Source: Acidimicrobiia bacterium | Lineage (GTDB): Bacteria > Actinomycetota > Acidimicrobiia > Spongiisociales > UBA5794 | Direction: 5' to 3' | NCBI GenBank assembly: GCA_965216945.1 | Contig: CBDCGU010000003.1 | Location: 2,440,382 to 2,504,381, forward strand | DNA: 64,000 bases | In this document: in pieces, positions 28,909 through 46,530 of the stretch | Numbering within the stretch: position 1 is the first letter of the stretch | How the letters are laid out: each line of letters opens with the position of its first letter | Translations under genes and position numbers: made by a program | Notes under the pieces: model-generated | What the model was told of the DNA's origin: nothing | The model's database searches: none | The model's input: the letters and a program-made list of their open reading frames with translations, nothing else

Positions 28909-28918
28909 GAGTCACCCA

Positions 28919-30037: not shown

Positions 30038-30045
30038 AGCGCTCC

Positions 30046-30828: not shown

Positions 30829-30899
30829 CTCTGCTCCCTCGTGTGCTTCTTCGGCGCCGGCAGTTTCACCGACAGGCGCCGCTGGTCAAAATCCCGCTC

Positions 30900-31346: not shown

Positions 31347-31354
31347 GGCGCCCG

Positions 31355-31963
31355 CTACCTCTCGACCTTGGTGAGGGGCCGGCCGTACGTCGACACGGGC
31401 TGCGGTGGCGGTGCCGACTCGGCCCGCTTCTGGTATTCCTGCCACTGGTACATCACGACGGCAGTACCCCCGAGCACCACCACGGCGTACGTGCCGGAGA
31501 CGATGTCCTTGACGGCGGCATAGCTGATGGAGACCTCGTTGTTGAGGACGAGCCACGACGGGATCGTCACGGCGGTCTTCTGCGGGGTCCATTCCCACAC
31601 GGATTGGGTGAGGGTGAGCCACTCGTTGGGCACGATGCCGAAAAGGATCATCATCACCGAGACGAACACCAGCGCACCGACCGCGGCACGCGCCCACGTC
31701 ATCGGCCGCTTGTAGAGGAACGCCAGGCAGATCCCACCCAACAGGACGAACGCGCCGCCCAGCGAGATGATCTGACCGATGACGACCGGAAGCCATCCGC
31801 GGGGAATCGACGGGTAGAGGTCGCGGCCGAGACTGTCGGTCTCCGGTAGCCCGGTGAAGTGGGCGATCAACGCCCCGCCGATGGCGACGAGCGTGCCAAC
31901 CACGATGGCGGCGGCACCCATCTGCTGAAATCGACGTATCTCTCTGTCGGTCGTTGCTGCCAT
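31355..31963 (-). CDS. Four-helix membrane protein, first gene of the b6-type operon, unknown family
   Basis: 202 aa from ATG 31963 (GGCGAGG upstream): MAATTDREIRRFQQMGAAAIVVG... with four hydrophobic segments. The upstream part of ORF 31355..32584 was discarded. Confidence 0.6.
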   Translation of the reverse strand: MAATTDREIRRFQQMGAAAIVVGTLVAIGGALIAHFTGLPETDSLGRDLYPSIPRGWLPVVIGQIISLGGAFVLLGGICLAFLYKRPMTWARAAVGALVFVSVMMILFGIVPNEWLTLTQSVWEWTPQKTAVTIPSWLVLNNEVSISYAAVKDIVSGTYAVVVLGGTAVVMYQWQEYQKRAESAPPPQPVSTYGRPLTKVER

Positions 31964-32126: not shown

Positions 32127-33359
32127 GTGAAGCTGCGCACCCGCATCGAGCGAATTCGGGACAGCCAGTTCGTGGTCCCAGTCGTCTTCATCGTGCTCAG
32201 CATCATTCTCGTGGTGGTGACGACCCAGCTGGACGAGCACGTCAGTCCGCCGGATCTGCTCATCCCCGCCAAGATCGGTGGTGTGCGCACGCTGCTGGCC
32301 ACCGTCGCCGGCTCGATCATCACTGCGGCCGCCCTGGTGTTTTCGTTCTCGGCGATCACGGTGCAGCTGGCCTCGAGCCAGTATTCACCCCGCCTGGTGC
32401 AGGAGTTCCTGCGCGATCGCGTCCAGCAGTCCATCGCCGGGCTCGTCATGGGGACGTTCACATTCGCCCTGACCTCGCTGGCCACACTCGGCGTCAACAC
32501 CTCCGACGAAGCGCGGACCGATTGGACGGCGACGACGGCGGTGGTGCTCGGCGTGGCCAGTGCGGTCTCGATCGTCGTATTCATCGATCACATCACTCGC
32601 CGCATCCGGATCGACGACACGATTCGTCGCATCACGATGCGGACCGTGGCAACGTTCGAAGCCGCCGGCGGTGGCGCCGCGGTCGCCGCCGATGGCTGGA
32701 ACCTGCAGCCGGAGACCAGGTCGTCGTGCGTGCGTTCCGCCGAGACGGGATTCATTCAGGAGATCGAATGCGATCGGCTGGTGGAAGCGCTGCAACCGGG
32801 GATCGTGGCCCGGCTCGACGTCTGGACGGGCGGTTTCGTCGCCGAAGGCGGCAGGCTCCTCACCGTCTGGACGGAACGGGCCGCACCGGCGCCCGCAGCG
32901 CTTCGAGAGTTCATCGCGGTGGGCGACACGAGGACGATCGAGCGGGACCCCGAACACGGCATCCGCCAGTTGGTCGACATCGGCCTGCGTGCCTTGTCGC
33001 CGGGAGTCAACGATCCGGCGACGGCTGCCGACGTCGCTCGCAACCTCGCGCTGTGTGTCCGAGCGGCATATCTCGTGGGTCCGCCGACCCGCGTGTGGGT
33101 ATCCGGCAACGGGGCGCGGCTGTTCGCTCCTCACGCCCGTGGGCCCAGCGACCACGTTGCCGTGGCGTACGAGCCCATACGGCGGAAAGCAGCGGATGAG
33201 CCAATGGTGCTCGGTGCGATCGTCGAGTCCTTGGAGTCCCTGGCCGACGAGCTGGAGGAGCGGGAGATCGACGCTACCGCCATCGACCGTGAGGTGGCGG
33301 CCGCTTCAGCCACGCTGCGTGAGCTCGGCGAGCCGGTCGCCGGCTCGCAACCGCAGTGA
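32127..33359 (+). CDS. DUF2254-family membrane protein
   Basis: 410 aa. N-terminal helices with AITVQLASSQYSPRL and a soluble C-terminal domain, as recalled for DUF2254. Confidence 0.75.
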   Translation: MKLRTRIERIRDSQFVVPVVFIVLSIILVVVTTQLDEHVSPPDLLIPAKIGGVRTLLATVAGSIITAAALVFSFSAITVQLASSQYSPRLVQEFLRDRVQQSIAGLVMGTFTFALTSLATLGVNTSDEARTDWTATTAVVLGVASAVSIVVFIDHITRRIRIDDTIRRITMRTVATFEAAGGGAAVAADGWNLQPETRSSCVRSAETGFIQEIECDRLVEALQPGIVARLDVWTGGFVAEGGRLLTVWTERAAPAPAALREFIAVGDTRTIERDPEHGIRQLVDIGLRALSPGVNDPATAADVARNLALCVRAAYLVGPPTRVWVSGNGARLFAPHARGPSDHVAVAYEPIRRKAADEPMVLGAIVESLESLADELEEREIDATAIDREVAAASATLRELGEPVAGSQPQ

Positions 33360-33431
33360 ACCCGTGACCGAGTCCTCTCGATCGACGTGCGAACCCCCGT
33401 CTTCTCTCGTTCGGGTGAGGACGAGTCTCGT

Positions 33432-33803
33432 TCAGGTGACGACGAAACGTACAGTTGGCCGGCCTGCCTCGGACGTCAGCTCCACGTCCGCAGCGACCGC
33501 CCGGAGGACCATCTGCCCGAGCGAGGTCTCCGCTGGCGGCCACGAATCCAGGGTCGGCGGCGCGCCGGTGGCGGCGACGCTGACGGCGAGACCTCGCTGG
33601 GCTGCGAACGCCTCGCACACGAGCTCGCCGCCCATTCCCAACTCGAGCAGCGCCGTGCTCGCCTCGTCGATGGCGAGACCGAGCTCGTCCATCTTGTCGT
33701 AGCCCATATCGACCTCTGCGGCGGCGCCGCTGGCGACGGAGCGTACGACCCGAACGGCTTCCGGTCGGGCGGGAACTTCGAGGCGGAAGACCGGGGGTGT
33801 CAT
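33432..33803 (-). CDS. Short RsbW-like anti-sigma-factor homologue lacking recognisable ATP-binding boxes
   Basis: 123 aa from ATG 33803: MTPPVFRLEVPARPEAVRVVRSVASGAAAEV...LGLAIDEASTALLE. It resembles the N-terminal half of HATPase-type anti-sigma factors, but no DxGxG or GxGxG box is present. Confidence 0.5.
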   Translation of the reverse strand: MTPPVFRLEVPARPEAVRVVRSVASGAAAEVDMGYDKMDELGLAIDEASTALLELGMGGELVCEAFAAQRGLAVSVAATGAPPTLDSWPPAETSLGQMVLRAVAADVELTSEAGRPTVRFVVT

Positions 33804-33818
33804 GGATTCGTATACTAC

Positions 33819-33838
33819 GGGGTGGTTGACGCCACCCC
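33819..33838. promoter_or_regulatory. Inverted repeat GGGGTGG-ttgacg-CCACCCC in a 54-bp divergent intergenic region
   Basis: Perfect 7-bp arms read directly. The spacer contains a TTGAC -35-like element. Confidence 0.4.
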
Positions 33839-33857
33839 ATGACGAACGAGGCGACCG

Positions 33858-34196
33858 ATGCCCCCGCAACTCACGATCGAGGAATCCACCGACGGAACGC
33901 ACGTCGTTCTCGCCGTCGTCGGTGAGATCGACCTTGCCACTGCGGCGGAGTTCGAGGCGAGGATCGAATCAGCCGGCAGTGCCGCCTCCATCGTCCTCGA
34001 TATGACGCAAGTCGCGTTCATCGATTCGACCGGCCTCAGGGTGCTCCTATCGGCACATGAGCGTGCCGACGACGGTGGCGGTCGACTTGCCATCGTCGCC
34101 GGCGAGGGTCCGGTGACCAAGCTCCTCGCCATCACCGGGGTGGACGAGTGGCTCAATGTCCACGAGACACGGAGCTCAGCCACATCGGATGGCTGA
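33858..34196 (+). CDS. STAS-domain anti-sigma-factor antagonist (RsbV/SpoIIAA-like)
   Basis: 112 aa. VLAVVGEIDLATAAEF, the phospho-serine context FIDSTGLRVLL, and KLLAITGVDE. Confidence 0.85.
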   Translation: MPPQLTIEESTDGTHVVLAVVGEIDLATAAEFEARIESAGSAASIVLDMTQVAFIDSTGLRVLLSAHERADDGGGRLAIVAGEGPVTKLLAITGVDEWLNVHETRSSATSDG

Positions 34197-34551
34197 GCCC
34201 TCCGAGTACCGCCTGCATCTCCCGGCCTCCGCCGAATCCGTTGCGCTGGCGCGTCTCTTCCTCGCGACCGTGTTGCGTACTCACCATGTCGATGAAGCCG
34301 CCGTGGACGATGCCAAGCTCGCCGTGTCGGAGCTGGCTACCGAGTGCGTGGTCAACGGGCCGAGTGATCGGTTCTCGGTCGTGGTCGCCCCGGCAACGGA
34401 GCTCTTTCGCGTCGAGGTCGGGCCGCTGACGCTCGGCGAAGCCGCCGACCGCAGCGAGCGTGTCCACCTCGCCCGAGCGTTGTTTCCGTCGATGGAGCTC
34501 GATCCGGTGACGCACACCGCCATGTACACGATCGCTGCCGCCGAGTCGTGA
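34189..34551 (+). CDS. Second short RsbW-like anti-sigma-factor homologue, degenerate N-box, no G-boxes
   Basis: ATG 34189 overlaps the STAS gene end by 8 nt, and the stop overlaps the sigma gene start (GTGA). LAVSELATECVVNG stands where kinases carry ELxTNAxxH. Confidence 0.5.
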   Translation: MAEPSEYRLHLPASAESVALARLFLATVLRTHHVDEAAVDDAKLAVSELATECVVNGPSDRFSVVVAPATELFRVEVGPLTLGEAADRSERVHLARALFPSMELDPVTHTAMYTIAAAES

Positions 34552-35279
34552 CCGACGCAGAGCTGGAGTTGTTCCAGCAGCGGGACGATCCGGTTGCGCG
34601 TGCACGCCTCGTTGCTGCCTACGAAGGTATCGCGATACGGCTTGCCGCCCGGTATCGAGGACGGGGCGAGCCCGAGGACGACCTCCAGCAGGTCGCCCGC
34701 CTTGGACTTCTCAACGCCATAGACCGCTTCGACGCAGACTACGGCGTCAAGTTCGCCACCTATGCGACGCGCACGATCGTGGGCGAGCTGAAGCGACACC
34801 TGCGGGACAGGACCTGGTCGATCCGGGTGCCCCGGTCGTTGCAGGAGCGCTGGCTGGAGACGAACCGAGCGGCCGAGGATCTCACTCACCGGCTCCACCG
34901 CTCTCCCACGGTCGACGAGATCGCAGCGGAGATCGGAGCGAGCCGGGACGAGGTGCTCGAAGCCATGGATGCGGGAAGTGCGTACACGGCTGGCTCGTTG
35001 GATGTGCCGGTTGGGTCTGAGGACGGCGATGCCGTCCTCGCCGATCGCCTCGGCGCCATCGACGCAGACCTGGAGACAGCAGGACCGTGGGCGTTCGCCG
35101 TCGAACAGATTCGGGCGCTGCCCGCCAGGGAGAGAGCGATCCTCGTGATGCGGTTCTTCGAAGACAAGTCGCAGACCGAGATCGCCGAAGCGATCGGGGT
35201 CTCCCAGATGCACGTGTCCCGCCTGCTCCGACGCAGCTTGAGCAAGCTGCGTGAGACGTCGGGCGCCGGAGGGGTCTGA
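34548..35279 (+). CDS. Group-3 sigma-70 factor (SigB/SigF type)
   Basis: 243 aa. Region 2 DDLQQVARLGLLNAIDRFD...FATYATRTIVGELKRHLRD and region 4 ILVMRFFEDKSQTEIAEAIGVSQMHVSRLL. Confidence 0.85.
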   Translation: MTDAELELFQQRDDPVARARLVAAYEGIAIRLAARYRGRGEPEDDLQQVARLGLLNAIDRFDADYGVKFATYATRTIVGELKRHLRDRTWSIRVPRSLQERWLETNRAAEDLTHRLHRSPTVDEIAAEIGASRDEVLEAMDAGSAYTAGSLDVPVGSEDGDAVLADRLGAIDADLETAGPWAFAVEQIRALPARERAILVMRFFEDKSQTEIAEAIGVSQMHVSRLLRRSLSKLRETSGAGGV

Positions 35280-35308
35280 GCATCCGGTATCCCGGGGGGC
35301 GGTTCGGC

Positions 35309-36850
35309 TCAACCGGCCCTCAAACGGCGCTGCAACAGCACCAGCGACACGGCGAACAGGGCGACGCTGCCAGCGCCCAGCGCGACCATCGTGCGGAGAT
35401 CCACCCCCTCGGCACGGAACATGACGTCGCGCAGCGAGTCGATGGCGTGGGTGATGGGAAGCGCCCACGAGACCGATCGGACCCAGACGACCAGACGGTC
35501 CAGGCTCAAGAAGAAGCCGGAGAAGAACGTACTGAGCAGCAGCACGATGAGCGCCAGGTTGATGGCTTGCGAGTCGGAGCTGACGACGGCCGAGATCGTG
35601 AAGCCGACCCCCAGGGACGCCAACGACAACAGGAACAGCACGAGCGTGTACGCGGCGATCGATCCGGTGATCGGTACGCCGAAGGCTCCCAGCATCAGCA
35701 GCGTCAAGGCGGTTGCGACCAGTGAGATGGCGGCGAGGAAACCGATGTACTTGCCGGCCAGGATCTGTGCGGCGTGCACAGGAGAGACACGGAACAACTC
35801 TTGTGTGCCCAGCGCACGCTCGCGTACGAGGGACAGGCCACCGAGGGTGATGCCGATGTGCTGGATCAACAGCGCGATCACACCGGGCGCATAGAAGGCG
35901 GTGATGTCCAACTCGGTTGCGCTCACGACGTCGGCGTCTGCGCCGAATGGGCTCACGAGGATGTCCGGGGGGACGCGGCGGAAGTCGTCGAGATTGTCGG
36001 CGAGCAGCGTGAGTTCTTCCTCGATCCGATGCATCTCGGCGATCTCGTCATCGAGCGGGCTCCCCACCGCATTGACGTCGAAGCTCTCCAGTTCGCTCAC
36101 GAGCGTCGCGAGTTGCCCCGATGTGCCGTCCTCGCCCGCCGTCGCATCGAAGTCGTCGCGGATGTTCTCGACGAGGATCTCCGTCGAGCCGACTTGTTGC
36201 TGGATCAATCTCAACTGACTGCTCAGCAGCCGGCGTTGCTCGGCGGCCTCGGAGGTGTTCCCCGCCTCGAGGGCACGTCGCATGGCGCCGGCACTCTCGG
36301 TCGCCGCCGGCAGGAGGGTCTCCAGATCCTCGGACTCCTCCTGGCCCGAGGCGACGAGCTCCTCGAGGATCCGGCGGTTGACGACATCCACCGTGCTCCG
36401 GGCGATGAGCGAGATCGTGGCCTGCTCGAACGGGTCGAGCTGATCGTGGAGAACGACGAAGATGGCGCGCTCACCGTTGCGGATCGTGTCGATCGGCGCT
36501 TCGGGCACGACGACTGCGACGTCGGCCCGGCCGTCACGCAGCCAGATCAGCGCCTCGTCGGTCGTGGCGACGTCGCCGACGATGATGATGTCGTCGCCGA
36601 ACTCGTCCGCTCTCGACTCGATCTGCTCCAAGAATGTCCCGTCGCCCGAGCTCACGAACACCGTGGCAAGCGGCTCGGTGTCCTGGCGATAGCCAAGGCC
36701 GAAGAGGGCGAGGATCAGGAATGGACCGAGGATCAGCGTGAGCACCAGTCGGGGCTGCCGGGCCACGTCCGCAATCTCCTTGCGTGCGAACGCGACGACT
36801 CGCGTGATCACGTTACCGATCTCACGCATGGTGAACTCGGGACGTCGCAT
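35309..36850 (-). CDS. ABC-2 type transporter permease with a large extracytoplasmic domain
   Basis: 513 aa: one N-terminal helix, a ~270-aa hydrophilic loop and five C-terminal helices. Overlaps the upstream ATPase gene by 29 nt. Confidence 0.75.
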   Translation of the reverse strand: MRRPEFTMREIGNVITRVVAFARKEIADVARQPRLVLTLILGPFLILALFGLGYRQDTEPLATVFVSSGDGTFLEQIESRADEFGDDIIIVGDVATTDEALIWLRDGRADVAVVVPEAPIDTIRNGERAIFVVLHDQLDPFEQATISLIARSTVDVVNRRILEELVASGQEESEDLETLLPAATESAGAMRRALEAGNTSEAAEQRRLLSSQLRLIQQQVGSTEILVENIRDDFDATAGEDGTSGQLATLVSELESFDVNAVGSPLDDEIAEMHRIEEELTLLADNLDDFRRVPPDILVSPFGADADVVSATELDITAFYAPGVIALLIQHIGITLGGLSLVRERALGTQELFRVSPVHAAQILAGKYIGFLAAISLVATALTLLMLGAFGVPITGSIAAYTLVLFLLSLASLGVGFTISAVVSSDSQAINLALIVLLLSTFFSGFFLSLDRLVVWVRSVSWALPITHAIDSLRDVMFRAEGVDLRTMVALGAGSVALFAVSLVLLQRRLRAG

Positions 36851-37847
36851 CGGTTTCCGAAACCGTGACGTCGCCCTCGATGCGATGGCGGCTCACCAGC
36901 TCCACGAACACATCGTCGAAGGGGGGAAGCCATTCCTCCGCCTGCTCGATGCCGATGTTCCGCTCACCGAGCCACGTGCTCAGGGCCGGCACGGCAACAG
37001 CTGCCTCCTCGACCGTGAAGCGAAGCCGGCGCTGGCCGGTCGGGACGCAATCGCTCGCCGCCGTCACCCGGCGCAGGTCTTCGATCAATCGAGCATCGGG
37101 GGCTTCGGTCAGCTCGACGTCGACGATGTCGCCCCCGTACGCAGCTCGCCGGAGCCCATCGGGCGTCTCTACCAGCAGCAACCTCCCGTCGGCGAGCACG
37201 GCCACGTGATCGCAGTACGCTGCCTCGCCCACGTACTGGGTGGTTACCACGAGCGTTCGTCCCTCTTCGGTGAGTGCCGCGAACCGGTCCCAGAACTTGC
37301 GGCGCAAGATGGGGTCGATGCCGGCGGTAGGTTCATCGAGGAAGACCAGCTCGGGCCGGTGAATGAGTGTCGTGGCGAGGGCGAGGCGTCGCTTCATGCC
37401 GCCGGAGATGTCGCTCACCCGCTTGGTCTGGTGGCCGTCGAGCTCGACGAACTCGAGCGCGGCTTCGAGATGAGGCCTCTTCCTCCACTTGCCGCCGTAC
37501 AGCGAAGCGAAGAAGGCGAGGTTCTCCCACACCGAGAGGTTGGGGTAGAGGACGGAGTGTTGCGGCATGTACCCGAGTCGCTGCCGGGTGGCTGCATCAA
37601 AGGTCGTCGGGCGACCACCGAACACGGTGAGATCACCGCCGGTTGGGCTGAGCACGCCGGTCATGAGGCGTACCGCGGTGGTCTTCCCGGAGCCGCTCGG
37701 GCCGATGAATCCCACGACGGAGCCGGCAGGAACGTTGATGTCGAGGGTGTGGATGCCGTCTCCGGAATCGAAGATCTTGCTCACATCCTCGGCACGCACC
37801 ACGAGGGCGTCGTGCAGCCCCGTGGCGCTGTTGGGTTCGGCGGGCAT
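36822..37847 (-). CDS. ABC transporter ATP-binding protein
   Basis: Walker A GPSGSGKTT, signature ISGGMKRRL, Walker B LVFLDEPTAGID. Confidence 0.9.
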   Translation of the reverse strand: MPAEPNSATGLHDALVVRAEDVSKIFDSGDGIHTLDINVPAGSVVGFIGPSGSGKTTAVRLMTGVLSPTGGDLTVFGGRPTTFDAATRQRLGYMPQHSVLYPNLSVWENLAFFASLYGGKWRKRPHLEAALEFVELDGHQTKRVSDISGGMKRRLALATTLIHRPELVFLDEPTAGIDPILRRKFWDRFAALTEEGRTLVVTTQYVGEAAYCDHVAVLADGRLLLVETPDGLRRAAYGGDIVDVELTEAPDARLIEDLRRVTAASDCVPTGQRRLRFTVEEAAVAVPALSTWLGERNIGIEQAEEWLPPFDDVFVELVSRHRIEGDVTVSETDATSRVHHA

Positions 37848-37889
37848 TTCGCTCCGATCTCTGAACCAGGCGACGCTGACTTACCCATC

Positions 37890-37930
37890 CCGGCGTCTTT
37901 CAAACCAGCCAACCGGCGTCTTTCAAACCA
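37890..37930. repeat. Perfect 18-nt direct repeat CCGGCGTCTTTCAAACCA x2, 23-nt register
   Basis: The copies at 37890..37907 and 37913..37930 were read directly. They lie in the divergent intergenic region between the ABC operon start (37847) and the gene starting at 37990. Confidence 0.9.
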
Positions 37931-37989
37931 ACGAGTCATGACACAGGGGAACACGGTTTCAATCTGGCAGCCTTGGGTAGACCGGGTCC

Positions 37990-38913
37990 ATGAGCACACA
38001 GTCACCGACGACATCTGACGTCCGTCGCAGCGCCCGTCTTGGCCGTCTGCTCATCGGGATCGGCCTGATAGGGCTCGTCGCGGCAGTGATCGTCGTCGTC
38101 CTCGGTTCGCGTTTCGTGGATCGAACCGCAGCCACCATCACCGACAGCCTCGACCTCACCGCCGAGGCCGTCCAGGCGTTCGATGAGACGATCGTCGTCG
38201 CCGCCGAGGCCACCGAGGTCGTCGCTTCGGGACTCGGCACCATCACGGACGCCGTCGCCGACTCGGAAGCGACGCTGGAGTCGGCGGGAGAACTGATGGA
38301 CAGCACCGCCGACGTGTTGAGCGGCGCCGTTCCCGACAGTGTCGATGCGATCCGTCAGACCATGCCGGCTCTCATTCAGACCGCCGAGCTGCTCGAGGAG
38401 GCCCTCGGTGCCCTCTCGTTACTCGGGGTCGACTTCTCTCCGGAGCGGCCGCCGGCCGATTCCCTTCGCAACATCGAGGGCCGTCTCACCGACGTCGTCG
38501 GCACGTTGCGGGAGAGCGCGGTGAGGCTCGAGACCGTTGGCCTCGGGTTCGGCGACCTCAGCAGGAGCGCCGGTTCGCTCACCGGCGAACTGGAGACCCT
38601 CTCGGCGAGCCTCGAGCGCGCCGACCAGCTCCTCGATGGCTACTCCTCGACCACGCAACGGACGGCGCTGCTGGTGGAGCAGGCGCGAAGCGACGTCGAT
38701 GCACAGCGCACCGAGGGACGGCTCGTGGTGCTGTTGCTCGGGTTACTCCTGGGGCTCGGCCAAGTGGTCCCGCTGTCCCTCGGCTGGCACATGCGCCGCA
38801 CCCAGGATCCTGCCCTGTCGGTGGATCCGGGTGGGGACACCCACCATCACGGTCCGACCATGGCCCCCGAATCGGACGTCCTCGGTTTGGATCTGGACGA
38901 TGCGGGTAGGTGA
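37990..38913 (+). CDS. Membrane protein with a helical extracytoplasmic domain, unknown function
   Basis: 307 aa with an N-terminal helix LLIGIGLIGLVAAVIVVVLG, a long Ala/Leu/Glu-rich helical region, and a second helix LVVLLLGLLLGLGQVV. Confidence 0.55.
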   Translation: MSTQSPTTSDVRRSARLGRLLIGIGLIGLVAAVIVVVLGSRFVDRTAATITDSLDLTAEAVQAFDETIVVAAEATEVVASGLGTITDAVADSEATLESAGELMDSTADVLSGAVPDSVDAIRQTMPALIQTAELLEEALGALSLLGVDFSPERPPADSLRNIEGRLTDVVGTLRESAVRLETVGLGFGDLSRSAGSLTGELETLSASLERADQLLDGYSSTTQRTALLVEQARSDVDAQRTEGRLVVLLLGLLLGLGQVVPLSLGWHMRRTQDPALSVDPGGDTHHHGPTMAPESDVLGLDLDDAGR

Positions 38914-38946
38914 GCGGCACTCATCCAACACAGGAGGAACGCGGTC

Positions 38947-39210
38947 ATGGGAATCATCGTCTGGCTGATCATCGGGCTCGTTGCGGGCTTCGTCGCACGT
39001 GCTCTCGTGCCGGGTCCTGATCCAATCGGAATGCTGGGAACTCTCGTGCTCGGCTTGGTCGGTTCGCTGATCGGCGGATTCCTCGGCAATCTCATCTTCA
39101 GCGGTGATCTCGAACTGTCGGCCGCAGGACTCATCGGATCCATCGTTGGCGCCGTGATCGCTCTGCTCATCTATCGGGCCATGAACTCCCGCCGCCCGTC
39201 GCACGTCTGA
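38947..39210 (+). CDS. GlsB/YeaQ/YmgE-family stress membrane protein
   Basis: MGIIVWLIIGLVAGFVARALVPG...LVLGLVGSLIGGFLG is the classic family pattern. Confidence 0.85.
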   Translation: MGIIVWLIIGLVAGFVARALVPGPDPIGMLGTLVLGLVGSLIGGFLGNLIFSGDLELSAAGLIGSIVGAVIALLIYRAMNSRRPSHV

Positions 39211-39234
39211 CGCCCCACATTCCTGCGTGCCCAA

Positions 39235-39268
39235 GTTGCGGGCCGGTGCTGCCGCGCCGGCCCGCAAC
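39235..39268 (+). terminator. 12-bp GC-rich stem-loop GTTGCGGGCCGG-N10-CCGGCCCGCAAC
   Basis: Read directly, 25 nt after the stop at 39210. There is no U-tract, which is common in high-GC actinobacteria. Confidence 0.5.
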
Positions 39269-39353
39269 CCGCGCGGGCGGCGATGTGGTGCGCACGCCAC
39301 GTGGATGTTTGCGGTCCCTCGCGCTCGGGTAGATTCTCCTCGACCGCTCATGA

Positions 39354-39857
39354 ATGGACACGCTCATGCTCGCTGGTGATGGCCACCGTCCCGAGGGCGG
39401 TGCAATCGGGAGCGGGCCGACTGATGCTCACGCACCGCCAACCCTCGAGTTCGAGCTCGCCGCCGAGGCTGCTGCGCCTTCTCGGGCTCGAGCGATCATC
39501 GCCGAGGTCGCAGCCGATCTCCCTGGGCCGGTCGTGTCTCGCGCTCAGCTCGCGGCGAGTGAGCTGGTGACCAACGCCGTACGCCATGGCTCCGACGAGG
39601 GTGGTTCCCTGCGAGTCCGCATCGTCGCCACACCGGCGGCCGCTCGACTATGGCTCGAAGTCACGGACGACGGTCGCACCTTTCCAAGGCCCGGCTCGGA
39701 GGTCGGCGACCATCGGTCGGACGATCGGGGGGGCTTCGGTCTGGGTATCGTCGAGGCCGTCGCGGATTCTGTCGAGGTCGTGCGCGGTGCGGCGTGGCGC
39801 GTCGTCGCCGAGTTCTGGGGAAGCGGGCCGGCAGGACATCTCCATCGCCACGTTTGA
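39354..39857 (+). CDS. RsbW-like anti-sigma factor / serine kinase (HATPase domain)
   Basis: N-box SELVTNAVRHG, EVTDDG, and GGFGLGIVEAV are all present. Confidence 0.7.
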   Translation: MDTLMLAGDGHRPEGGAIGSGPTDAHAPPTLEFELAAEAAAPSRARAIIAEVAADLPGPVVSRAQLAASELVTNAVRHGSDEGGSLRVRIVATPAAARLWLEVTDDGRTFPRPGSEVGDHRSDDRGGFGLGIVEAVADSVEVVRGAAWRVVAEFWGSGPAGHLHRHV

Positions 39858-39913
39858 GCTTGCTCCGGACCGGGTAGTTCGGAAGGACACCCGACCCAGA
39901 GGAGCGACACAGG

Positions 39914-40474
39914 ATGGAATCGCGCTTTCGGCCCGCCGGATTGTCGAGCGAGACCGCAGACGAGCTCGTCGAGGTTCTGCAAAGCCGACTCGTCAGCCTC
40001 ATCGACGTGAGCCTCGTGTTGAAGCACATTCACTGGAACGTCGTGGGACCCGGCTTCATCGGTGTTCATGAGATGCTCGACGATCACGTCGCTGGAGTGC
40101 GTGCGGCCGCCGATGAGGTCGCGGAGCGAATCGCCACGTTGGGAGGTGTTCCCAACGGTCTCCCGGGCCACCTGACGCATACTCGCTCGTGGGACGACTA
40201 CGCGATCGGTCGCGCGGTCGTTGCCGCCCACCTCGGTGCGCTCGACAAGGTCTACGACGGCGTGATCGCCGACCACAGAACCGCCGCCGAGTTCGCTGCC
40301 GACCGCGATCCGGTGACCGAGGACATGCTGGTTGCCCAGACCGGAACCCTTGAGCTATACCAATGGTTCGTGAGAGCCCACGTGGAGAACACGTCGGGTG
40401 AGCTCATGAGCGGTGACGCCGACACCGAACTCGAGGCCGCCGCAGCCGCAGCGACTGCCAGTCCCCTCGATTGA
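39914..40474 (+). CDS. dps: Dps (DNA protection during starvation) ferritin-like protein
   Basis: LQSRLVSLIDVSLVLKHIHWNVVGPGFIGVHEMLDD...RIATLGG... is the Dps ferroxidase signature. Confidence 0.9.
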   Translation: MESRFRPAGLSSETADELVEVLQSRLVSLIDVSLVLKHIHWNVVGPGFIGVHEMLDDHVAGVRAAADEVAERIATLGGVPNGLPGHLTHTRSWDDYAIGRAVVAAHLGALDKVYDGVIADHRTAAEFAADRDPVTEDMLVAQTGTLELYQWFVRAHVENTSGELMSGDADTELEAAAAAATASPLD

Positions 40475-40654
40475 GCACGCCCCCTCCCGAGAGGGCACTG
40501 CTGCCTGAAGCCTCGCGCGTAAAGACGCGGGACGGGCGGTCCGATGTGCCTGCACTTTGTTCTTACCGGCCAACCTCGTAGGCTGCCCGCCGCCACGGTT
40601 GCGTGGCGTGGGAAGGCTGCCAGACGCAGAGGAACCGCCGCGGTGACGTCCGAC

Positions 40655-42577
40655 ATGACAGAGACCTCCGAGCCCGCGACGACGTCTCCGACGACGCCCG
40701 GCCCGGTATCGCCACCCCGCCCGCGGGCCTATGCCGCGGTCAGCCTGACGTTTCTCGGCCTGTCCCTGATCCTGGGCGGTCTCGCCGGTCTTCAGCTACT
40801 GATCCCCGAATTGTTCGAGGGGGTCGCCTTCCTCACATACGGCAAGCTGGCGCCGATCGCAACGGACATGTTCCTCTATGGCTGGCTCACGATCGGGCTG
40901 GCCGGTGCGTTGCTGTACTCCGTCGGCAGCGCCGGGGGCGTCGGCATCCCGCAGTCGCTTGCCGCACGCTCGGCGCTCGCTCTCCTGACCGTGGGTGTCC
41001 TGGCCGGCACGGTTGGGATCGCTCTCGGTTTCAACGAAGGCCGGCAATATCTCGAGTACCCGCTGTGGGCCGACGTCTTCCTGCTCGCCGGGTTCATATC
41101 ACTCGCCGCCACGATCGCTCGCATGTCGAAACGCGCCGCGGTCAACCCAGGACCTGTGAGGTGGTACGCGAACGCCGCCGTGTTGTGGCTCGTCCTTGCG
41201 TTCATCGTCGGCAACGTTCCCGGTATCAGTGGCGTTGCCGTCGCCTTCCAGGCGTCGTTCTTTCGGGCGTCGCTTTTCGGGCTGTGGCTGGCAGCGGGCG
41301 CTGTCGCCGTCGTCTATCACCTGATCCCGCGCATCGCCGGACGCAGCGCGCTTGTCCCGACTCGGATGACGCTGCTCGGATTCTGGTCGTTGACATTCGT
41401 GTGGGCGCTCACCGCCCCGGCGAACCTGACGTACTCCCCGGCGCCGGACTGGTTGGAGACGGTCGGTGTCGTGTTTTCCTTCGGCCTGCTCATCCCCCCG
41501 CTCATCATCGGCAGCGACCTGCTCGTCGCCATGCGGGGCAGGTGGCAGGCAAGCGCCGGCAGCCTCCCACTCAGCTTCACGGTGCTCGGCATGGTTCTGC
41601 TCGCAATGTGGCCGCTCATGAACGTGTCGCTCTCCATCCGCTCGTCGAGTGGCGTCGTTCAGTTCACGGACTGGGTCTCGGGTACGGACGGGTTGCTGCT
41701 GTTCGGGGCAGTCTCGGCTTGGCTGGTGGCCTACAACTACTTCGCCGGCGGCGATCTCTTCCGGGGTTCTGCGCGCCGCGGGCTGGGAAGGCTGCACTAT
41801 CTCGGTACCGTCGTGGGTTTGCTGTTGTGGCTCGGCGCCTCGGTGCTGGCCGGCCTGACGGCGGGGTGGACTTGGGTGGCATCGGCGAACGACGCTGCGG
41901 TACCCGTGGCAGGCTTGGGCTTCTCCAACACCCTGGGCGGTGTCGAGGAGTTGTACATCGCCCGCTTCATCGGGTTCGTCGTCTTTCTCCTCGCCCAGTT
42001 GATCTTCATCGTGAACGTCACGACGGCCCGCGGCTCCGACCCCGCCCCCGACATCGACGAAGGCGTCCAGGAGCTCGACCCCGAGCTCGCTCTCGCCGGC
42101 GACGGCCCCTCCCGGCTGCGCCTCGCCGTGGTCACCCTGTTCGTGCTCGCCGTGACGTTCGTGGTCTTGGTGCCCTGGGCCGAGATGGCGGGTGCCGATG
42201 CGAGCATTCGCGGCGACACGGCGCGGCGATACACCACGGCGGACGAGGTCGCCCGGGGACGGGAGATCTACCTGCAGGAGGGCTGTTGGTACTGCCACAC
42301 CCAGCAGGTGCGGCCCATCGTCGGAGACGTCGGGCTTGGTCCCGTGTCCGAGGCCGGCGACTACGTGTTCGAGACTCCCGCACTCTTCGGCGTCCAGCGC
42401 CTCGGCCCCGACTTGATGCATGCCGGCAACCGTCCCGATACGGACGATCCGGCATGGCTCGAGCGATACCTGGCCGATCCGAGGTCGGAACGCTCGTACT
42501 CCAACATGCCGTCGTACGATCATCTCTCGAGCTCGGATCTCGCCGACCTCGCTGCCTATGTAGCAAGCCTGAAGTGA
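40655..42577 (+). CDS. cbb3-type oxidase CcoN-like membrane domain (all metal-ligand His substituted) fused to a CcoO-type monohaem cytochrome c domain
   Basis: 640 aa from ATG 40655. Similar to CcoN along its length, but APIATD, FRASLF, APANLTY and GTDGLL stand at the His ligand positions. The C-terminal domain has EGCWYCHTQQVRP...GPDLMHAG...NMPSY. Confidence 0.8.
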   Translation: MTETSEPATTSPTTPGPVSPPRPRAYAAVSLTFLGLSLILGGLAGLQLLIPELFEGVAFLTYGKLAPIATDMFLYGWLTIGLAGALLYSVGSAGGVGIPQSLAARSALALLTVGVLAGTVGIALGFNEGRQYLEYPLWADVFLLAGFISLAATIARMSKRAAVNPGPVRWYANAAVLWLVLAFIVGNVPGISGVAVAFQASFFRASLFGLWLAAGAVAVVYHLIPRIAGRSALVPTRMTLLGFWSLTFVWALTAPANLTYSPAPDWLETVGVVFSFGLLIPPLIIGSDLLVAMRGRWQASAGSLPLSFTVLGMVLLAMWPLMNVSLSIRSSSGVVQFTDWVSGTDGLLLFGAVSAWLVAYNYFAGGDLFRGSARRGLGRLHYLGTVVGLLLWLGASVLAGLTAGWTWVASANDAAVPVAGLGFSNTLGGVEELYIARFIGFVVFLLAQLIFIVNVTTARGSDPAPDIDEGVQELDPELALAGDGPSRLRLAVVTLFVLAVTFVVLVPWAEMAGADASIRGDTARRYTTADEVARGREIYLQEGCWYCHTQQVRPIVGDVGLGPVSEAGDYVFETPALFGVQRLGPDLMHAGNRPDTDDPAWLERYLADPRSERSYSNMPSYDHLSSSDLADLAAYVASLK

Positions 42578-42581
42578 CATC

Positions 42582-43490
42582 GTGGAACAGCTGATCGCTC
42601 AAATCGCCGAGATGCACGGCTACCCCGCCGAGATGGTGGAGCGGGCCGCAGCTGCGCGCGCCGGGGCCATGGGTGTCGGCATCGAGCAGGTGTTGCAGCA
42701 GTGGGCGGGTGGCGACGCCGCCCCGGTGGCGCCGGTGGCGCCGGCGGCTGCACCCGAGGCTACGGCACCGGAGTCATCCCTGCCGGCCGAGTCTGCGGCG
42801 CCTGCGCCAGACGAGGCACCGGGCGGCCCGGAGGTCGAGGTGCTCGGCCCGGTCGCCGGCGACGAGACACCCGATGATGATGCTGGCGAACCGGCAGTAC
42901 CCGAGGCGGCCGAGCGCAGAGTCCCGCAGGGATCGGTCGTGTCGGGTTTCCCGCGCTGGCTGGTGGCAGCGTTCGTCATCATCCCGGCCATCGCCCTGCT
43001 CTATCTGATGCAGGCTCCCGACGGCCCCGATTGCGGTGTCGCCGGCCAGCTGGCGCTCGATCCCGTCAGCGGGGAGGCCGTGAACTGCGACGGCACTCCA
43101 TACGGTGTGGAGGTCGTCAACTTCTTCTCGATGGGCCAGGAGATCTACGACACCCGTTGTTCGGCGTGCCACGGAGCCGGCGGTGGCGGTGGCGCTGGGC
43201 AGGTTCTCGCCGGTGGAGCAGTGCTCGCCAGCTTCCCGAGTGGCAGCTGCCTCGAGCACATCGATTGGGTGGCGTTGGGTTCGGACAACTGGCCTGATCC
43301 CACCTACGGTGCACTCGCCAAACCCGTGGGCGGCTTCGGCCAGATGCCTGGATTCGAGGGCACGCTCACGGAGGAGGAGATCGCCTCGGTGGTCCTCTAT
43401 GAGCGGGTGGCCTTCGGCGGCGAGGCCCTGCCCGACGCCGAAGCCGACTGTCAGGTCACGGACGCCGCGGAAGTGTCCGCAGCGCCCTGA
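42582..43490 (+). CDS. Membrane-anchored monohaem cytochrome c (CcoP-like position) with an N-terminal helical module
   Basis: GTG lies 4 nt after the upstream stop. The product has an N-terminal YPAEMVERAAAARAGAMGVGIEQVLQQW, an Ala/Pro linker, the helix WLVAAFVIIPAIALLYL, CSACH, and GQMPGF...VVLYERV. Confidence 0.75.
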   Translation: MEQLIAQIAEMHGYPAEMVERAAAARAGAMGVGIEQVLQQWAGGDAAPVAPVAPAAAPEATAPESSLPAESAAPAPDEAPGGPEVEVLGPVAGDETPDDDAGEPAVPEAAERRVPQGSVVSGFPRWLVAAFVIIPAIALLYLMQAPDGPDCGVAGQLALDPVSGEAVNCDGTPYGVEVVNFFSMGQEIYDTRCSACHGAGGGGGAGQVLAGGAVLASFPSGSCLEHIDWVALGSDNWPDPTYGALAKPVGGFGQMPGFEGTLTEEEIASVVLYERVAFGGEALPDAEADCQVTDAAEVSAAP

Positions 43491-43588
43491 TACACCGAGC
43501 ACTCCCGACCGAAGTCCTGCATCCATCGACGTTGCGGGCTGGCGTTGCAGCCGATCGCTCCTCCCTCGATGGCCCGGCCTCCATGGCG

Positions 43589-44503: not shown

Positions 44504-44504
44504 G

Positions 44505-44519
44505 ATGACAAGGTGTCAT
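44505..44519. promoter_or_regulatory. Perfect palindrome ATGACA-agg-TGTCAT in an unusually AT-rich stretch
   Basis: Read directly. It lies between the divergent LysM-protein gene and ctaA. Confidence 0.4.
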
Positions 44520-44662
44520 ATCATGAAATGAGCGTTGAACAATCTTATATGCCTAAGCCTGGGCAGACTCCCGAACGGCGCGGCCCACGAGGGAACGGTC
44601 TCCGTCGTAGCGAGTCGTCCCCGGAAGCGGTAAGGCCGCGGCGGTCGGGTACGCTTGCCGCG

Positions 44663-45631
44663 ATGGCCACAGCCAGCCCTCCTCCCGAGACCACACCGTC
44701 CAGAGCCGTGCCCCGGCTGGCGTGGGCGAGCCTGGCGTTCACGGTTGCGGTCATCCTCGGAGGGGCCGTCGTTCGAGCGACCGACTCCGGCGCCGGGTGC
44801 GGCGAGTCGTGGCCCCGTTGTGATGGCCAGCTCATCCCGGTCTCGCCGCAGGGTGCGACGGTGATCGAGTTCACCCACCGCATGATGACGGCGGCGCTCG
44901 GGTTTGCGCTGATCGCGCTGGTCGTGCTCGTACTGCGGCACTACCCCAGAGGGCATCGGGTGCGACGTGCGCTGGCGTGGACGATCGGGTTCTTCGTCGG
45001 CGAGGTCATCATCGGGGCACTACTCGTGGTCTTCGGGTGGGTGGAGGACGATGCCAGCATCGGCAGGGTGATCGCCGTGACGGTGCACCTCGTCAACACG
45101 TTCCTCCTGCTCGGAGCGATGACGCTCACGGCACATCTCGCCTCGGGCCGGCCACCCGTGGAGCCCGACTGGAGACGCACCCGTGATCGGCTCCTCCTGG
45201 TCGGTGTGATCACGCTGCTCGTCGTCGGCGCCTCCGGGGCGCTCAACGCCCTGAGCGACACGCTGTTCCCCGCCGACTCGTTGCTCGACGGCATCCGTGC
45301 CGAATTCGGCCCGACGGCTCCTTTCCTCTTGCGGTTGCGGACGGTGCACCCCCTCATCGCCGTAGCGGGCAGTGGTGTCATCTTCATGCTGACGCGTGCC
45401 CCCTCCCTGGGTGGTTCGCCGCGGGTCAACCGCCTCTCGGTGTCGATCCAGGCGCTGCTCGGAGCGCAGGTCGTCATCGGCCTGCTCAACGTGGCGCTGC
45501 TGACGCCGGTGGAGACTCAGGTCGTCCATCTGCTTGCGGCGGACGTTCTCTGGATCCTGTGGGTGCTGCTTGCTGCCGAGGTGATCGGGGTTCGGTCGGT
45601 GTACGGTCTCCGCGAGCGTGAAGCCGCATGA
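44663..45631 (+). CDS. ctaA: Haem A synthase (COX15/CtaA family)
   Basis: MATASPPPE...GGAVVRATDSGAGCGESWPRCDG..., eight helices, and conserved His in HRMMTA and VHLVNTF. The ORF-track start 44513 would add 50 non-hydrophobic residues inside the AT-rich region, so the start is uncertain. Confidence 0.8.
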   Translation: MATASPPPETTPSRAVPRLAWASLAFTVAVILGGAVVRATDSGAGCGESWPRCDGQLIPVSPQGATVIEFTHRMMTAALGFALIALVVLVLRHYPRGHRVRRALAWTIGFFVGEVIIGALLVVFGWVEDDASIGRVIAVTVHLVNTFLLLGAMTLTAHLASGRPPVEPDWRRTRDRLLLVGVITLLVVGASGALNALSDTLFPADSLLDGIRAEFGPTAPFLLRLRTVHPLIAVAGSGVIFMLTRAPSLGGSPRVNRLSVSIQALLGAQVVIGLLNVALLTPVETQVVHLLAADVLWILWVLLAAEVIGVRSVYGLREREAA

Positions 45632-46530
45632 GCGCACCCGAGGTCCGCATCACCGACCCCGAGGAAACCGCTTCACGGGGTGGCGTCCTGCGTGCCTACT
45701 TCGAACTGACCAAGCCGCGCATCATCGAGCTTCTCCTGGTGACGACGGTGCCGGCGATGGCCGTGGCGGCGGCGGGATGGCCGGGTTCGTGGCTGGTGCT
45801 GGCAACGTTGATCGGCGGGGCGCTGTCTGCCGGGGGCGCCAACGCCATCAACCAGGTCGTGGATCGCGACATCGACCGGAAGATGCGCCGCACGCGACGC
45901 AGGCCGGTACCGACCGACCGTATCGGGCCCACCAACGCCGTTGTGTTCGGAACCACACTGGGGCTTGCCGGGTTCGCGTGGCTCTGGGCGACGACCAACC
46001 TCCTGGCGGCAACTCTGTCGACGCTCGGACTGCTCTTCTACGTGTTCGTCTACACGATGTATCTCAAGCGGAGGTCGGTTCAGAACATCGTCATCGGTGG
46101 TGCAGCCGGCGCAGTCCCGCCTCTGGTTGGATGGGCCGCCGTGGCCGGCGATCTGGCGCTGCCCGCCTGGATCATGTTCGCCATCGTCTTCTACTGGACC
46201 CCACCCCACTTCTGGGCACTGGCCCTCAAGTACGAGGCGGACTACGCCGCCGCCGGCGTACCCATGCTGCCCGTGGTCGCCGGCCGCAAGCGCACCGTCG
46301 ACCACATCGTCATGTATACCGTCGTGCTCGTTGGCGTCTCGCTCATGCTGGTGCCGACCGGGACCGTCGGTGTGCTCTACCTGGCGGCGGCGTCACTGCT
46401 CGGGATCGCGCTGTTCCTCGCGGCGTGGCGGCTGCGAACCCACGAAGGCGAGGCGATGCGCTTCTTCCACTGGTCCAACGGATACCTCGCCACGCTCTTC
46501 GTGGCGATGCTGGCGGACGCCCTCCTGTGA
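45628..46530 (+). CDS. ctaB: Protohaem IX farnesyltransferase (haem O synthase)
   Basis: LTKPRIIELLLVTT, NQVVDRDIDRKMRRTRRRP, YWTPPHFWALAL. Overlaps the ctaA stop by 4 nt. Confidence 0.9.
   Translation: MSAPEVRITDPEETASRGGVLRAYFELTKPRIIELLLVTTVPAMAVAAAGWPGSWLVLATLIGGALSAGGANAINQVVDRDIDRKMRRTRRRPVPTDRIGPTNAVVFGTTLGLAGFAWLWATTNLLAATLSTLGLLFYVFVYTMYLKRRSVQNIVIGGAAGAVPPLVGWAAVAGDLALPAWIMFAIVFYWTPPHFWALALKYEADYAAAGVPMLPVVAGRKRTVDHIVMYTVVLVGVSLMLVPTGTVGVLYLAAASLLGIALFLAAWRLRTHEGEAMRFFHWSNGYLATLFVAMLADALL

Follow-up and report, generated by a model that had tools for sequence, protein, structure and literature searches.

A CcoN-CcoO fusion protein of Acidimicrobiia that lacks all haem and copper ligands, probably a membrane scaffold for c-type cytochromes

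What can the catalytic subunit of a haem-copper oxidase (HCO) still be used for once every residue that holds its cofactors is gone? The question is raised by a gene of the window (the whole 64-kb stretch of Acidimicrobiia DNA analysed) that encodes a fusion of the cbb3 oxidase subunits CcoN and CcoO, and in which an earlier note on this DNA had found none of the ligand histidines. The ligands of haem b, haem b3, CuB and Ca2+ are missing, together with most of the proton-path residues; hence, the product, here called pCcoNO, cannot reduce O2 or NO in the known way. As the gene is kept under selection across Acidimicrobiia in the neighbourhood of a Rieske/cytochrome b operon (bc operon), pCcoNO probably serves c-type cytochromes as a membrane scaffold and does not act as an O2-reducing enzyme.

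Gene model, ligand columns and predicted fold

The features discussed are collected in Table 1. The start of pCcoNO is likely GTG 40643, with a GAGGAA-like site 8-9 nt upstream, or ATG 40655. The mechanical start of the open reading frame (ORF), ATG 40544, falls within a terminator-like hairpin after the Dps gene; a scan of positions 39800-44600 for promoters and terminators returned no promoter-like site and only this weak hairpin. A database model of 644 aa is 100% identical to the window protein, and its numbering is used below (minus 4 for the ATG 40655 start). As described earlier, the ORF is uninterrupted and GC3-biased (GC3 of 0.83), and 4 nt separate its stop codon (42575-42577) from the GTG (42582) of the following cytochrome c gene.

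Table 1. Features of the pCcoNO locus and of the neighbouring bc operon (positions in the window).
Feature	Position	Strand	Details
Membrane-anchored dihaem cytochrome c of the bc operon	26393..28051	-	CxxCH at aa 131 and 464
Rieske iron-sulphur protein	28042..28908	-	
Subunit-IV-like protein (cytochrome b C-terminal part)	28919..30037	-	N-terminal extension with the ~33-aa motif in triplicate
Cytochrome b6-like protein (N-terminal half of cytochrome b)	30046..30828	-	74-97% identity among loci of Acidimicrobiia
2x[4Fe-4S] ferredoxin-like subunit of the bc operon, 148 aa	30900..31346	-	
Membrane protein of 202 aa, no Pfam family	31355..31963	-	First gene of the bc operon
Block of ~8.4 kb between the two operons	32127..40474		DUF2254, ABC-2 transporter pair, hypothetical, Transgly_assoc, RsbW-like HATPase, Dps
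Ligand-less CcoN-CcoO fusion gene (pCcoNO)	40643..42577	+	644 aa from GTG 40643 or 640 aa from ATG 40655
CcoN-like 12-helix membrane domain	40643..42022	+	aa 1-460; His in 0/6 haem/CuB ligand columns
Poorly conserved linker, helix 12 to CcoO anchor helix	42023..42115	+	aa 461-491; mean conservation 0.37
Transmembrane anchor helix of the CcoO-like part	42116..42190	+	aa 492-516
CcoO/FixO monohaem c domain	42191..42574	+	aa 517-644; CWYCH 42284-42298; 'MPSY' motif conserved
Membrane-anchored monohaem cytochrome c, CcoP gene position	42582..43490	+	N-terminal motif 42621-42719; CSACH 43158-43172
CtaA (haem A synthase) and CtaB (haem O synthase)	44513..46530	+	Context only

That the gene is a CcoN-CcoO fusion was borne out by Pfam, where both parts exceed the gathering scores: COX1 (PF00115) covers residues 25-440 of 640 and profile positions 5-433 of 436 (E 1.1e-24; 87.6 bits, cut-off 34.8), and FixO (PF02433) covers residues 489-629 (E 6.2e-25; 88.4 bits, cut-off 29.6). 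The scores are below the cut-offs of the NCBIfam models TIGR00780 ccoN (96.2 bits vs. 583) and TIGR00781 ccoO (85.7 bits vs. 200.65). The FixO domain possesses its CxxCH, its axial Met motif and its N-terminal anchor helix (residues 492-516). At the haem c site, C548, C551 and H552 are invariant, as is P623, and the conservation of M622 reaches at least 90%; the 'MPSY' motif carries the axial Met. According to the topology of the model, the linker (residues 461-491) is predicted to lie on the cytoplasmic side.

In a phmmer search against the PDB, residues 25-464 matched residues 16-465 of Pseudomonas stutzeri CcoN (3mk7_A, E 1.5e-18), and all the CcoN reference strings given in the earlier note are visible in this alignment. 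In CcoN, H60 and H347 are the ligands of haem b, H345 of haem b3, and H207, H257 and H258 of CuB. The counterparts of H60, H207, H257, H258, H345 and H347 are A73, A209, A260, N261, T348 and G350; these calls do not differ between the pairwise alignment of phmmer and two alignments by MAFFT, so all six ligand histidines are indeed gone. They are likewise absent in 49/49 homologues and in about 35 genome loci. The Tyr251 of helix VII, cross-linked to H207 in CcoN, is also replaced, not by Phe, as the earlier note had it with a register off by two residues, but by Trp (W254). This column holds Trp in 45/49 homologues, and the partner His is missing too.

The loss extends beyond the ligands. Residues invariant in 44 canonical relatives (R57, E122, W203, N208, T215, Y317, Q/E323 and G324) are replaced in the ligand-less clade, including all those listed for Ca2+/haem-propionate binding and the proton path (E122, R57, T215, Y317, E/Q323): Y317 gives way to F/L, T215 to A/G and E323 to hydrophobic residues. 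Y223 is retained, and the S240 position varies among S, T, A and G. The structural Gly, Pro and Trp residues of CcoN are retained in the ligand-less proteins. Only two histidines are left among the 470 residues of the membrane domain, H226 and H385, neither at a ligand column, as had been noted before; H385 is conserved in 45/49 family members. New polar residues specific to the family are found in the membrane region: R208 (41/49), E/D349 (45/49), Q203 (48/49) and D292 (49/49). R208 adjoins the former position of H207, and E/D349 lies between those of H345 and H347.

The AlphaFold2 model of pCcoNO (pLDDT 85, pTM 0.90) was superposed by Foldseek on cbb3 CcoN with a TM score of 0.87 and an rmsd of 2.1 Å, bearing in mind that AlphaFold2 folds such a protein holo-like whether or not a cofactor binds. 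With the topology inferred from the helix order of the model, conservation is 0.66 in the periplasmic loops and 0.66 in the periplasmic helix halves vs. 0.45 in the cytoplasmic loops. The periplasmic face is the CcoO side in cbb3.

Homologues, selection and the conserved locus

The ligand loss is common to >100 homologues, 25-72% identical and mostly from Acidimicrobiia. The clade is deep, with members that are only about 25-40% identical and yet all devoid of ligands. The dN/dS ratio is 0.08-0.3 in the CcoN domain of the fused genes, similar to that of the CcoO domain, and 0.18-0.36 in the stand-alone ligand-less CcoN genes. Across 49 sequences, 19 residues of the N domain are invariant, long loop motifs are conserved as well, and the ORFs are intact in every full-length locus examined. 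No sign of pseudogene decay was thus seen among the homologues, and pCcoNO is not a decaying gene. In a rough NJ tree, one split holds 105/121 ligand-less sequences and 0/66 canonical ones, which fits one ancient loss. The notion of a pseudo-oxidase is strongly supported by the complete, clade-wide ligand loss, the loss of the Ca2+ and proton-path residues, the purifying selection and the CcoN fold.

Unfused pairs of ligand-less CcoN and CcoO genes were found at the same type of locus and in the same layout as the fused genes; the N-O fusion is therefore incidental and not essential. An apparent triple fusion of CcoNO with the cytochrome c in two loci (L013/L014) was rejected, the 1013-aa stop-to-stop ORF being an alternative-frame run-on typical of high-GC DNA. 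Other CcoN lineages in the protein library show partial ligand loss, which hints that degenerate oxidases form a broader class than has been recognised.

The conserved locus consists of nine genes. In 30/35 ligand-less loci, the cytochrome b gene is divergent and 1.2-2.5 kb away, and in 28/35 a monohaem cytochrome c is the next gene after the ligand-less one. Only in the present genome is pCcoNO parted from the bc operon by the ~8.4-kb block. Counted from cytochrome b, ~27/80 Acidimicrobiia loci with the bc operon have a CcoN-like gene within 10 kb, and Ilumatobacteraceae and Microthrixaceae have none within that distance; hence, the module is dispensable for the bc complex. Several Acidimicrobiia lineages have lost CcoN/O and kept the motif-bearing partner cytochrome c. 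Neither this loss, nor the divergent operon as a conserved partner, nor the incidental nature of the fusion was part of the earlier note.

The downstream cytochrome c matches ccoP weakly (20.7 bits against 180), no FixP_N domain is reported in it by Pfam, and its matches in the PDB are only weak c6/CcoP-like ones (E about 5e-4), so that it is not established as a CcoP homologue. It shares the ~33-aa motif with the subunit-IV-like protein of the bc operon, and the motif occurs in these two proteins only. A search with a 44-column profile of the motif returned only fragments of 36-77 aa, from Acidimicrobiia or Actinomycetota where the organism was named. In the cytochrome c, the motif is placed on the cytoplasmic side by the inferred topology.

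No maturation genes of cbb3 oxidases (ccoGHIS) were found among the Pfam-scanned ORFs of the 64-kb window. The presence of ctaA and ctaB implies a haem-A oxidase elsewhere in the genome. Their adjacency to the locus was discarded as a conserved link, since it is common only to the closest relative (L001), and they are kept merely as a sign of that oxidase. An A-type oxidase subunit I (GHPEVY motif) was absent from the 167 fetched loci and from the window.

Proposed role and alternatives

The reading we favour, at a probability of roughly one in two, is that pCcoNO is a redox-dead cbb3 core, kept as the scaffold of a relay of two c-type haems that serves the bc complex while another oxidase reduces O2. 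The CcoN domain would be retained as a structural membrane core, around which the CcoO haem domain and the monohaem cytochrome c encoded downstream would be assembled much as in cbb3. The two c-type haems of these partners would form the electron relay. The module may work with the Rieske/cytochrome b6-type complex, either docking to it or acting as its dedicated acceptor, and would hand the electrons to a separate terminal oxidase, putatively the haem-A oxidase implied by ctaA/ctaB. The link to the bc complex is suggested by the gene neighbourhood and the shared motif. The role as a membrane platform for c-type haems, already put forward in the earlier note, is a reasonable inference.

Could pCcoNO instead be a slowly decaying relic heading for loss, which anchors the CcoO haem domain and has no other specific role? 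CcoN/O have disappeared wholly from many Acidimicrobiia with the same bc operon, some of which keep only the motif-bearing cytochrome c, and evolution is much faster in the ligand-less protein (31-72% identity) than in the adjacent cytochrome b (78-97%). However, a relic is hard to reconcile with intact ORFs in all full-length loci examined, dN/dS well below 1 in fused and stand-alone genes, the depth of a clade in which every member lacks the ligands, the 19 invariant N-domain residues and the conserved long loops. We consider it unlikely.

Somewhat less credence still is given to a new, non-redox activity of the cofactor-less CcoN domain (conduction of ions or protons, binding or sensing of small molecules or lipids), served by the c-haem domain. 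The CcoN domain persists as a separate gene in the unfused forms, and the polar residues conserved around the former binuclear centre (R208, E/D349, Q203, D292 and H385) fit such an activity. Of these, R208, E/D349 and D292 could point to a new activity and not just to a scaffold, and the buried Arg-Glu pair at the old binuclear centre might carry it. The same pair is explained equally well as a structural plug, though; the known proton-path residues are dismantled (Y317, T215, E323), and no transporter or sensor genes are conserved as neighbours.

A function in biogenesis and not in steady-state electron transfer, such as that of a platform on which c-type cytochromes or the bc complex are assembled, would agree with the absent catalytic residues and with the conserved synteny with the bc operon and the cytochrome c gene. 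It is improbable: pCcoNO has a strongly conserved covalent haem c domain of its own with His/Met ligation, a trait of an electron carrier and not of a chaperone, and no known maturation genes are conserved alongside. Single ligand swaps are indeed tolerated in other HCO families: in gNOR, Asp takes the place of a metal-ligand His, and in nNOR and some eNORs the low-spin haem is coordinated by His/Met or His/Lys (PMC11214002). That pCcoNO is still a haem or metal enzyme through unconventional ligands, for which the conserved H385, Y66 and Y225 of the ligand-less homologues might be candidates, or that the ligand columns are misaligned, is nonetheless very improbable, as three alignment methods concur and the flanking motifs align unambiguously, just two histidines remain in the membrane domain, the CcoN-domain helices of the 49 homologues contain no conserved Met, Cys or Lys, and neither the haem-propionate Arg (R57) nor the Ca2+ Glu (E122) nor any of the CuB-site residues is preserved.

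Beyond the scaffold reading, a broader proposal is tentative, and we doubt it somewhat more than we believe it: pCcoNO may be the first natural haem-copper pseudo-oxidase, whose subunit I was stripped of all redox cofactors a single time, early in Acidimicrobiia, and was then kept for very long as the core of a new respiratory assembly. This assembly would comprise a Rieske/cytochrome b6 complex, the extra ferredoxin and membrane subunits and a cbb3-shaped, c-haem-only module, tied together by the shared cytoplasmic motif. No description of a ligand-less CcoN was found in the full-text literature, including PMC11214002 and a Ferrigenium preprint, which is weak evidence, with most subscription journals outside the scope.

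The annotation of these genes has consequences. Source databases label the ligand-less proteins 'cbb3-type cytochrome c oxidase subunit I' or 'subunit I/II', a label that could mislead metabolic inference. In metagenome papers, cbb3 oxidases are listed for MAGs from automatic annotation (PMC8357290); if such genes are of the ligand-less type, the inferred high-affinity, micro-oxic respiration would be wrong for a class widespread in water, soil and sediment. More generally, pCcoNO offers a clean natural case of a 12-helix catalytic membrane subunit that has survived without any of its cofactors. This case is relevant to the question of how much the oxidase fold relies on haem for its stability, and to the recruitment of dead enzymes as structural parts of respiratory complexes. 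For the bioenergetics of Acidimicrobiia, the nine genes of the conserved locus point to a respiratory assembly not yet characterised.

Comparison with known systems

The closest model is the cbb3 oxidase itself (C-family HCO; P. stutzeri, 3MK7/5DJQ). The fold and helix order of the CcoN domain match (TM 0.87), the CcoO monohaem domain with its CxxCH and MPSY is homologous, and a gene for a membrane-anchored cytochrome c occupies the CcoP position. On the contrary, pCcoNO lacks the His ligands of haem b, haem b3 and CuB, the cross-link Tyr, the Ca2+ Glu and most proton-path residues. Moreover, the third subunit at its locus is monohaem instead of dihaem and without FixP_N according to Pfam, and no ccoGHIS genes are seen nearby in the 64-kb window.

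Natural active CcoN-CcoO and CcoN-O-P fusions (NCBIfam PRK14485, 'bifunctional cbb3 subunit I/II') have the same N-to-C domain order, and fused relatives with the full HHYHHHH ligand set are present in the protein library (e.g., P0089, P0093, P0099 and P0102). With 193 bits vs. a cut-off of 1080, pCcoNO fits the architecture of PRK14485 but not its sequence class; furthermore, it lacks the ligands, and the fusion is optional within its clade.

Haem-free paralogues of a catalytic subunit, retained as structural partners, occur in cytochrome bd (CydB and the archaeal CydA'). These belong to a different superfamily, however, and their partner within the enzyme is an active paralogue, whereas none is encoded near pCcoNO. 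In qNOR, the domain order is reversed relative to pCcoNO. Like pCcoNO, qNOR is an HCO with a cytochrome c subunit fused to subunit I and with one part free of cofactors (PMC11214002), but it represents the reverse case: its fused c-type domain has lost the haem and its catalytic subunit is intact, whereas in pCcoNO the catalytic part is stripped of its ligands and the c domain is intact.

In the bc1-cbb3 supercomplexes of R. capsulatus (6XKW) and P. aeruginosa (8SMR), a cbb3 core docks on a bc complex, and the electrons pass via membrane-anchored c-type cytochromes. There, cbb3 is an active oxidase, while the association of pCcoNO with a bc complex is suggested by synteny and the shared motif. 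The CcoN chains of both supercomplexes are among the best structural matches to pCcoNO.

The fusion gene and its ligand columns

The ligand-less CcoN-CcoO fusion (CcoNO; residues numbered after the 644-aa model) is encoded by a single ORF without interruption, for which three starts are available. The start of the long mechanical ORF is covered by a weak terminator-like hairpin, which argues that the true start is one of the two downstream codons. As claimed in the earlier note, the ORF is GC3-biased (0.83), and the next gene, encoding a cytochrome c, begins 4 nt past its stop. The CcoN and CcoO/FixO identities assigned there were confirmed by Pfam: a full-length COX1 match (E 1.1e-24, profile 5-433 of 436) is followed C-terminally by a FixO domain (E 6.2e-25), both above the gathering score. 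The NCBIfam CcoN/O fusion, ccoN and ccoO models reach 193, 96 and 86 bits, against curated cut-offs of 1080, 583 and 201.

Coordinates of the features in the window
Feature	Position	Strand	Remark
Rieske/cytochrome b6-type (bc) operon	26393-31963	-	
Subunit-IV-like gene	28919-30037	-	33-aa motif in N-terminal extension; 1-4 copies across loci, three in the window
Block between bc operon and CcoNO	32127-40474		8.4 kb
Weak terminator-like hairpin	40533-40552		after Dps gene
CcoNO, mechanical ORF start	ATG 40544	+	codon overlapped by hairpin
CcoNO, database gene model start	GTG 40643	+	644 aa, P0001; GAGGAA-like site 8-9 nt upstream
CcoNO, start in the earlier note	ATG 40655	+	12 nt downstream of the GTG
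CcoNO, end	42577	+	
Motif of the cytochrome c after CcoNO	42621-42719	+	N-terminus; 1-5 copies across loci, one in the window
TIR-domain protein	52422-53420	+	332 aa

With phmmer, residues 25-464 align with Pseudomonas stutzeri CcoN (3mk7_A, E 1.5e-18), and the reference strings quoted in the earlier note are all present in this alignment. Phmmer and two MAFFT alignments agree on the ligand columns: the haem b ligands H60 and H347 correspond to A73 and G350, the haem b3 ligand H345 to T348, and the CuB ligands H207, H257 and H258 to A209, A260 and N261. The loss of all six His, as well as the count of only two His in the membrane part, was hence rightly recognized. The cross-link Tyr, on the contrary, is not replaced by Phe: the Tyr251 column holds a Trp (W254). 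Set against 44 canonical relatives, the protein has also exchanged further residues that never vary in active enzymes, among them R57, E122 of the Ca2+ site, W203, N208, T215, Y317, Q/E323 and G324, and it has the structural Gly, Pro and Trp residues in common with them. In the haem c site, which is intact, C548, C551 and H552 are invariant and M622/P623 conserved. Judged from the aligned residues, no known mode of ligation of haem b, haem b3 or CuB is open to the CcoN domain.

Conservation, fold and the wider family

A collection of 5.8 billion proteins yielded 51 close homologues, 33-72% identical, and none of the 49 aligned has a His at any ligand column. In contigs from one genome per species, the ligand-less form is present in about 35 loci, almost all of which bear the label Acidimicrobiia or Actinomycetota. 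Loci next in rank, at 24-29% identity (Acidobacteriota, Vampirovibrionales and others), carry the complete ligand set of six His and Tyr, the exceptions being one fragment and two loci whose alignment has a gap at the Tyr column. The dN/dS of the CcoN domain is 0.08-0.3, like that of the haem domain, even if these Nei-Gojobori values are rough, synonymous sites being near saturation. The protein is under selection and the gene is retained, no decaying pseudogene; a slowly decaying remnant, as a rival explanation, sits poorly with these values and with a ligand loss common to all aligned homologues.

AlphaFold2, supplied with the family alignment, predicts 12 + 1 helices (pLDDT 85, pTM 0.90). 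In Foldseek, the model superposes on cbb3 CcoN chains (TM 0.87, rmsd 2.1 Å), ranked above NO reductases and A/B-type oxidases. The oxidase scaffold thus appears to be kept, as had been proposed, and CcoNO is, by homology and predicted fold, a derivative of the C-family oxidases.

A profile search of 1.84 billion representatives gave 5025 hits. Among the best 150, His is missing from every one of the six columns in 64, occupies some of them in 28 and all of them in 21, and 34 are fragments. Ligand-less CcoN is also encoded by itself, in 467-479 aa (P0098, P0125, P0218), and downstream of such genes come FixO, as a gene of its own, and a cytochrome c gene; with a dN/dS of 0.18-0.36, these CcoN genes are under purifying selection. 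In a rough neighbour-joining tree, one split contains 105 of 121 ligand-less and none of 66 canonical sequences, which fits a ligand loss that happened once, long ago, in this clade. Other ligand-less and partial forms fall elsewhere in the tree and look like separate events; some come from Planctomycetales and have a CcoP-like gene of their own.

Apparent partial-ligand homologues of CcoN or CcoNO are P0154, P0162, P0116, P0167, P0175, P0181, P0189 and P0198, as well as those at loci L086 and L087. Some have both haem His sets and no CuB His, others only the low-spin haem pair; one is from Planctomycetales. These homologues come with a CcoP-like gene of their own, and a bc operon is absent from their neighbourhood. 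At another locus (L084, P0107), the surroundings of a ligand-less CcoN and CcoO pair are different: a nuo operon adjoins it, and the genes upstream encode a large multihaem cytochrome, a cNMP-binding Fe-S protein and an FHA-domain flavoprotein.

The linked bc operon

The main new finding is the gene context with a cytochrome b operon. Of 35 ligand-less loci, 30 have a cytochrome b gene 1.2-2.5 kb off on the opposite strand, and in 28 a monohaem cytochrome c follows directly downstream. The divergent operon encodes, in order, a ~200-aa membrane protein without Pfam family (202 aa in the window), a ~148-aa 2x[4Fe-4S] ferredoxin, a b6-like cytochrome b, a subunit-IV-like protein, a Rieske protein and a dihaem cytochrome c. 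Of 80 Acidimicrobiia loci, more than 70 contain the two unusual extra genes before cytochrome b. The closest relative (L001) has no 8.4-kb block, its two operons being only ~0.4 kb apart; the remainder is colinear with the window, to a point past ctaA and ctaB. This block holds DUF2254, an ABC-2 transporter pair, a hypothetical protein, Transgly_assoc, an RsbW-like HATPase and Dps. Elsewhere in the window, a protein with an N-terminal TIR domain (PF13676, E 4e-12) is encoded between methyladenine glycosylase and geranylgeranyl-reductase-like genes, just upstream of the nuo operon.

Exactly two proteins in these loci, the subunit-IV-like protein and the cytochrome c after CcoNO, carry a ~33-aa motif (xPEhLLRRSAEARAKAEGxxVEeVLAEm) without Pfam family, on N-termini that are both probably cytoplasmic. 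No match was found in canonical cbb3 loci, and a database profile search retrieved short fragments only, the named source organisms being Acidimicrobiia or Actinomycetota.

The reverse test took cytochrome b as its starting point and covered 80 Acidimicrobiia loci that have the bc operon. A CcoN-like gene is present within 10 kb in only about 27 of them, every one ligand-less; in Ilumatobacteraceae, Microthrixaceae and many Acidimicrobiales loci, none was detected even at E < 10. In several of these lineages, a monohaem cytochrome c with the motif is still encoded divergently from the bc operon. CcoN/O is therefore a repeatedly lost accessory, and cytochrome c the more constant partner of the operon. 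Loci with a divergent monohaem cytochrome c and no CcoN/O are L104, L110, L139, L140, L144, L152 and L163 (Microthrixaceae, Ilumatobacteraceae, Acidimicrobiales), the motif being present in L104, L110, L139 and L144. Where downstream genes were read, a NuoA-like gene lies shortly after the bc operon (L132, L140, L163).

Possible role and known systems

The CcoN domain may be a structural core that holds together the haem domain of CcoO and the partner cytochrome c; through the c-haems of these two, electrons would pass from the adjacent bc complex to another oxidase. We give this reading a probability of about 0.5. In cbb3 oxidases, CcoO docks on the periplasmic face, and conservation here peaks on the putative periplasmic face (0.66 vs. 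0.45 for cytoplasmic loops). Two conserved residues may pair in place of the metal centre: R208, beside the position of the former H207, and Glu/Asp 349, flanked by those of the former H345 and H347. A haem-A enzyme is implied by ctaA/ctaB in the window; none was found in the fetched DNA. Besides the slowly decaying remnant, rival explanations are a CcoN-like domain with a new non-redox activity, a role in biogenesis, and cryptic catalysis, which would have to use unusual ligands. The platform for c-type haems of the earlier note is plausible as a candidate role.

A ligand-free branch is not mentioned in a broad survey of haem-copper oxidase families (PMC11214002), and no published description of a ligand-less CcoN was found in a literature search of an incomplete corpus; specialists may already have set such sequences aside. 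The finding has practical weight because databases currently name these genes cbb3 oxidase.

Compared with a cbb3 oxidase, CcoNO fails the defining tests (ligands, Tyr, proton path, curated scores, dihaem CcoP), and the proposed pseudo-oxidase is well supported. The fusion is shared with active N-O and N-O-P fusions among relatives and is in itself ordinary. Cytochrome bd, with its haem-free CydB/CydA' subunits, offers a conceptual precedent for a ligand-less CcoN. Structures of bc1-cbb3 supercomplexes show that a cbb3 core can dock on a bc complex, whereas here an association is suggested by the genes. The mirror case is qNOR, in which the c-type part has lost its haem (PMC11214002).
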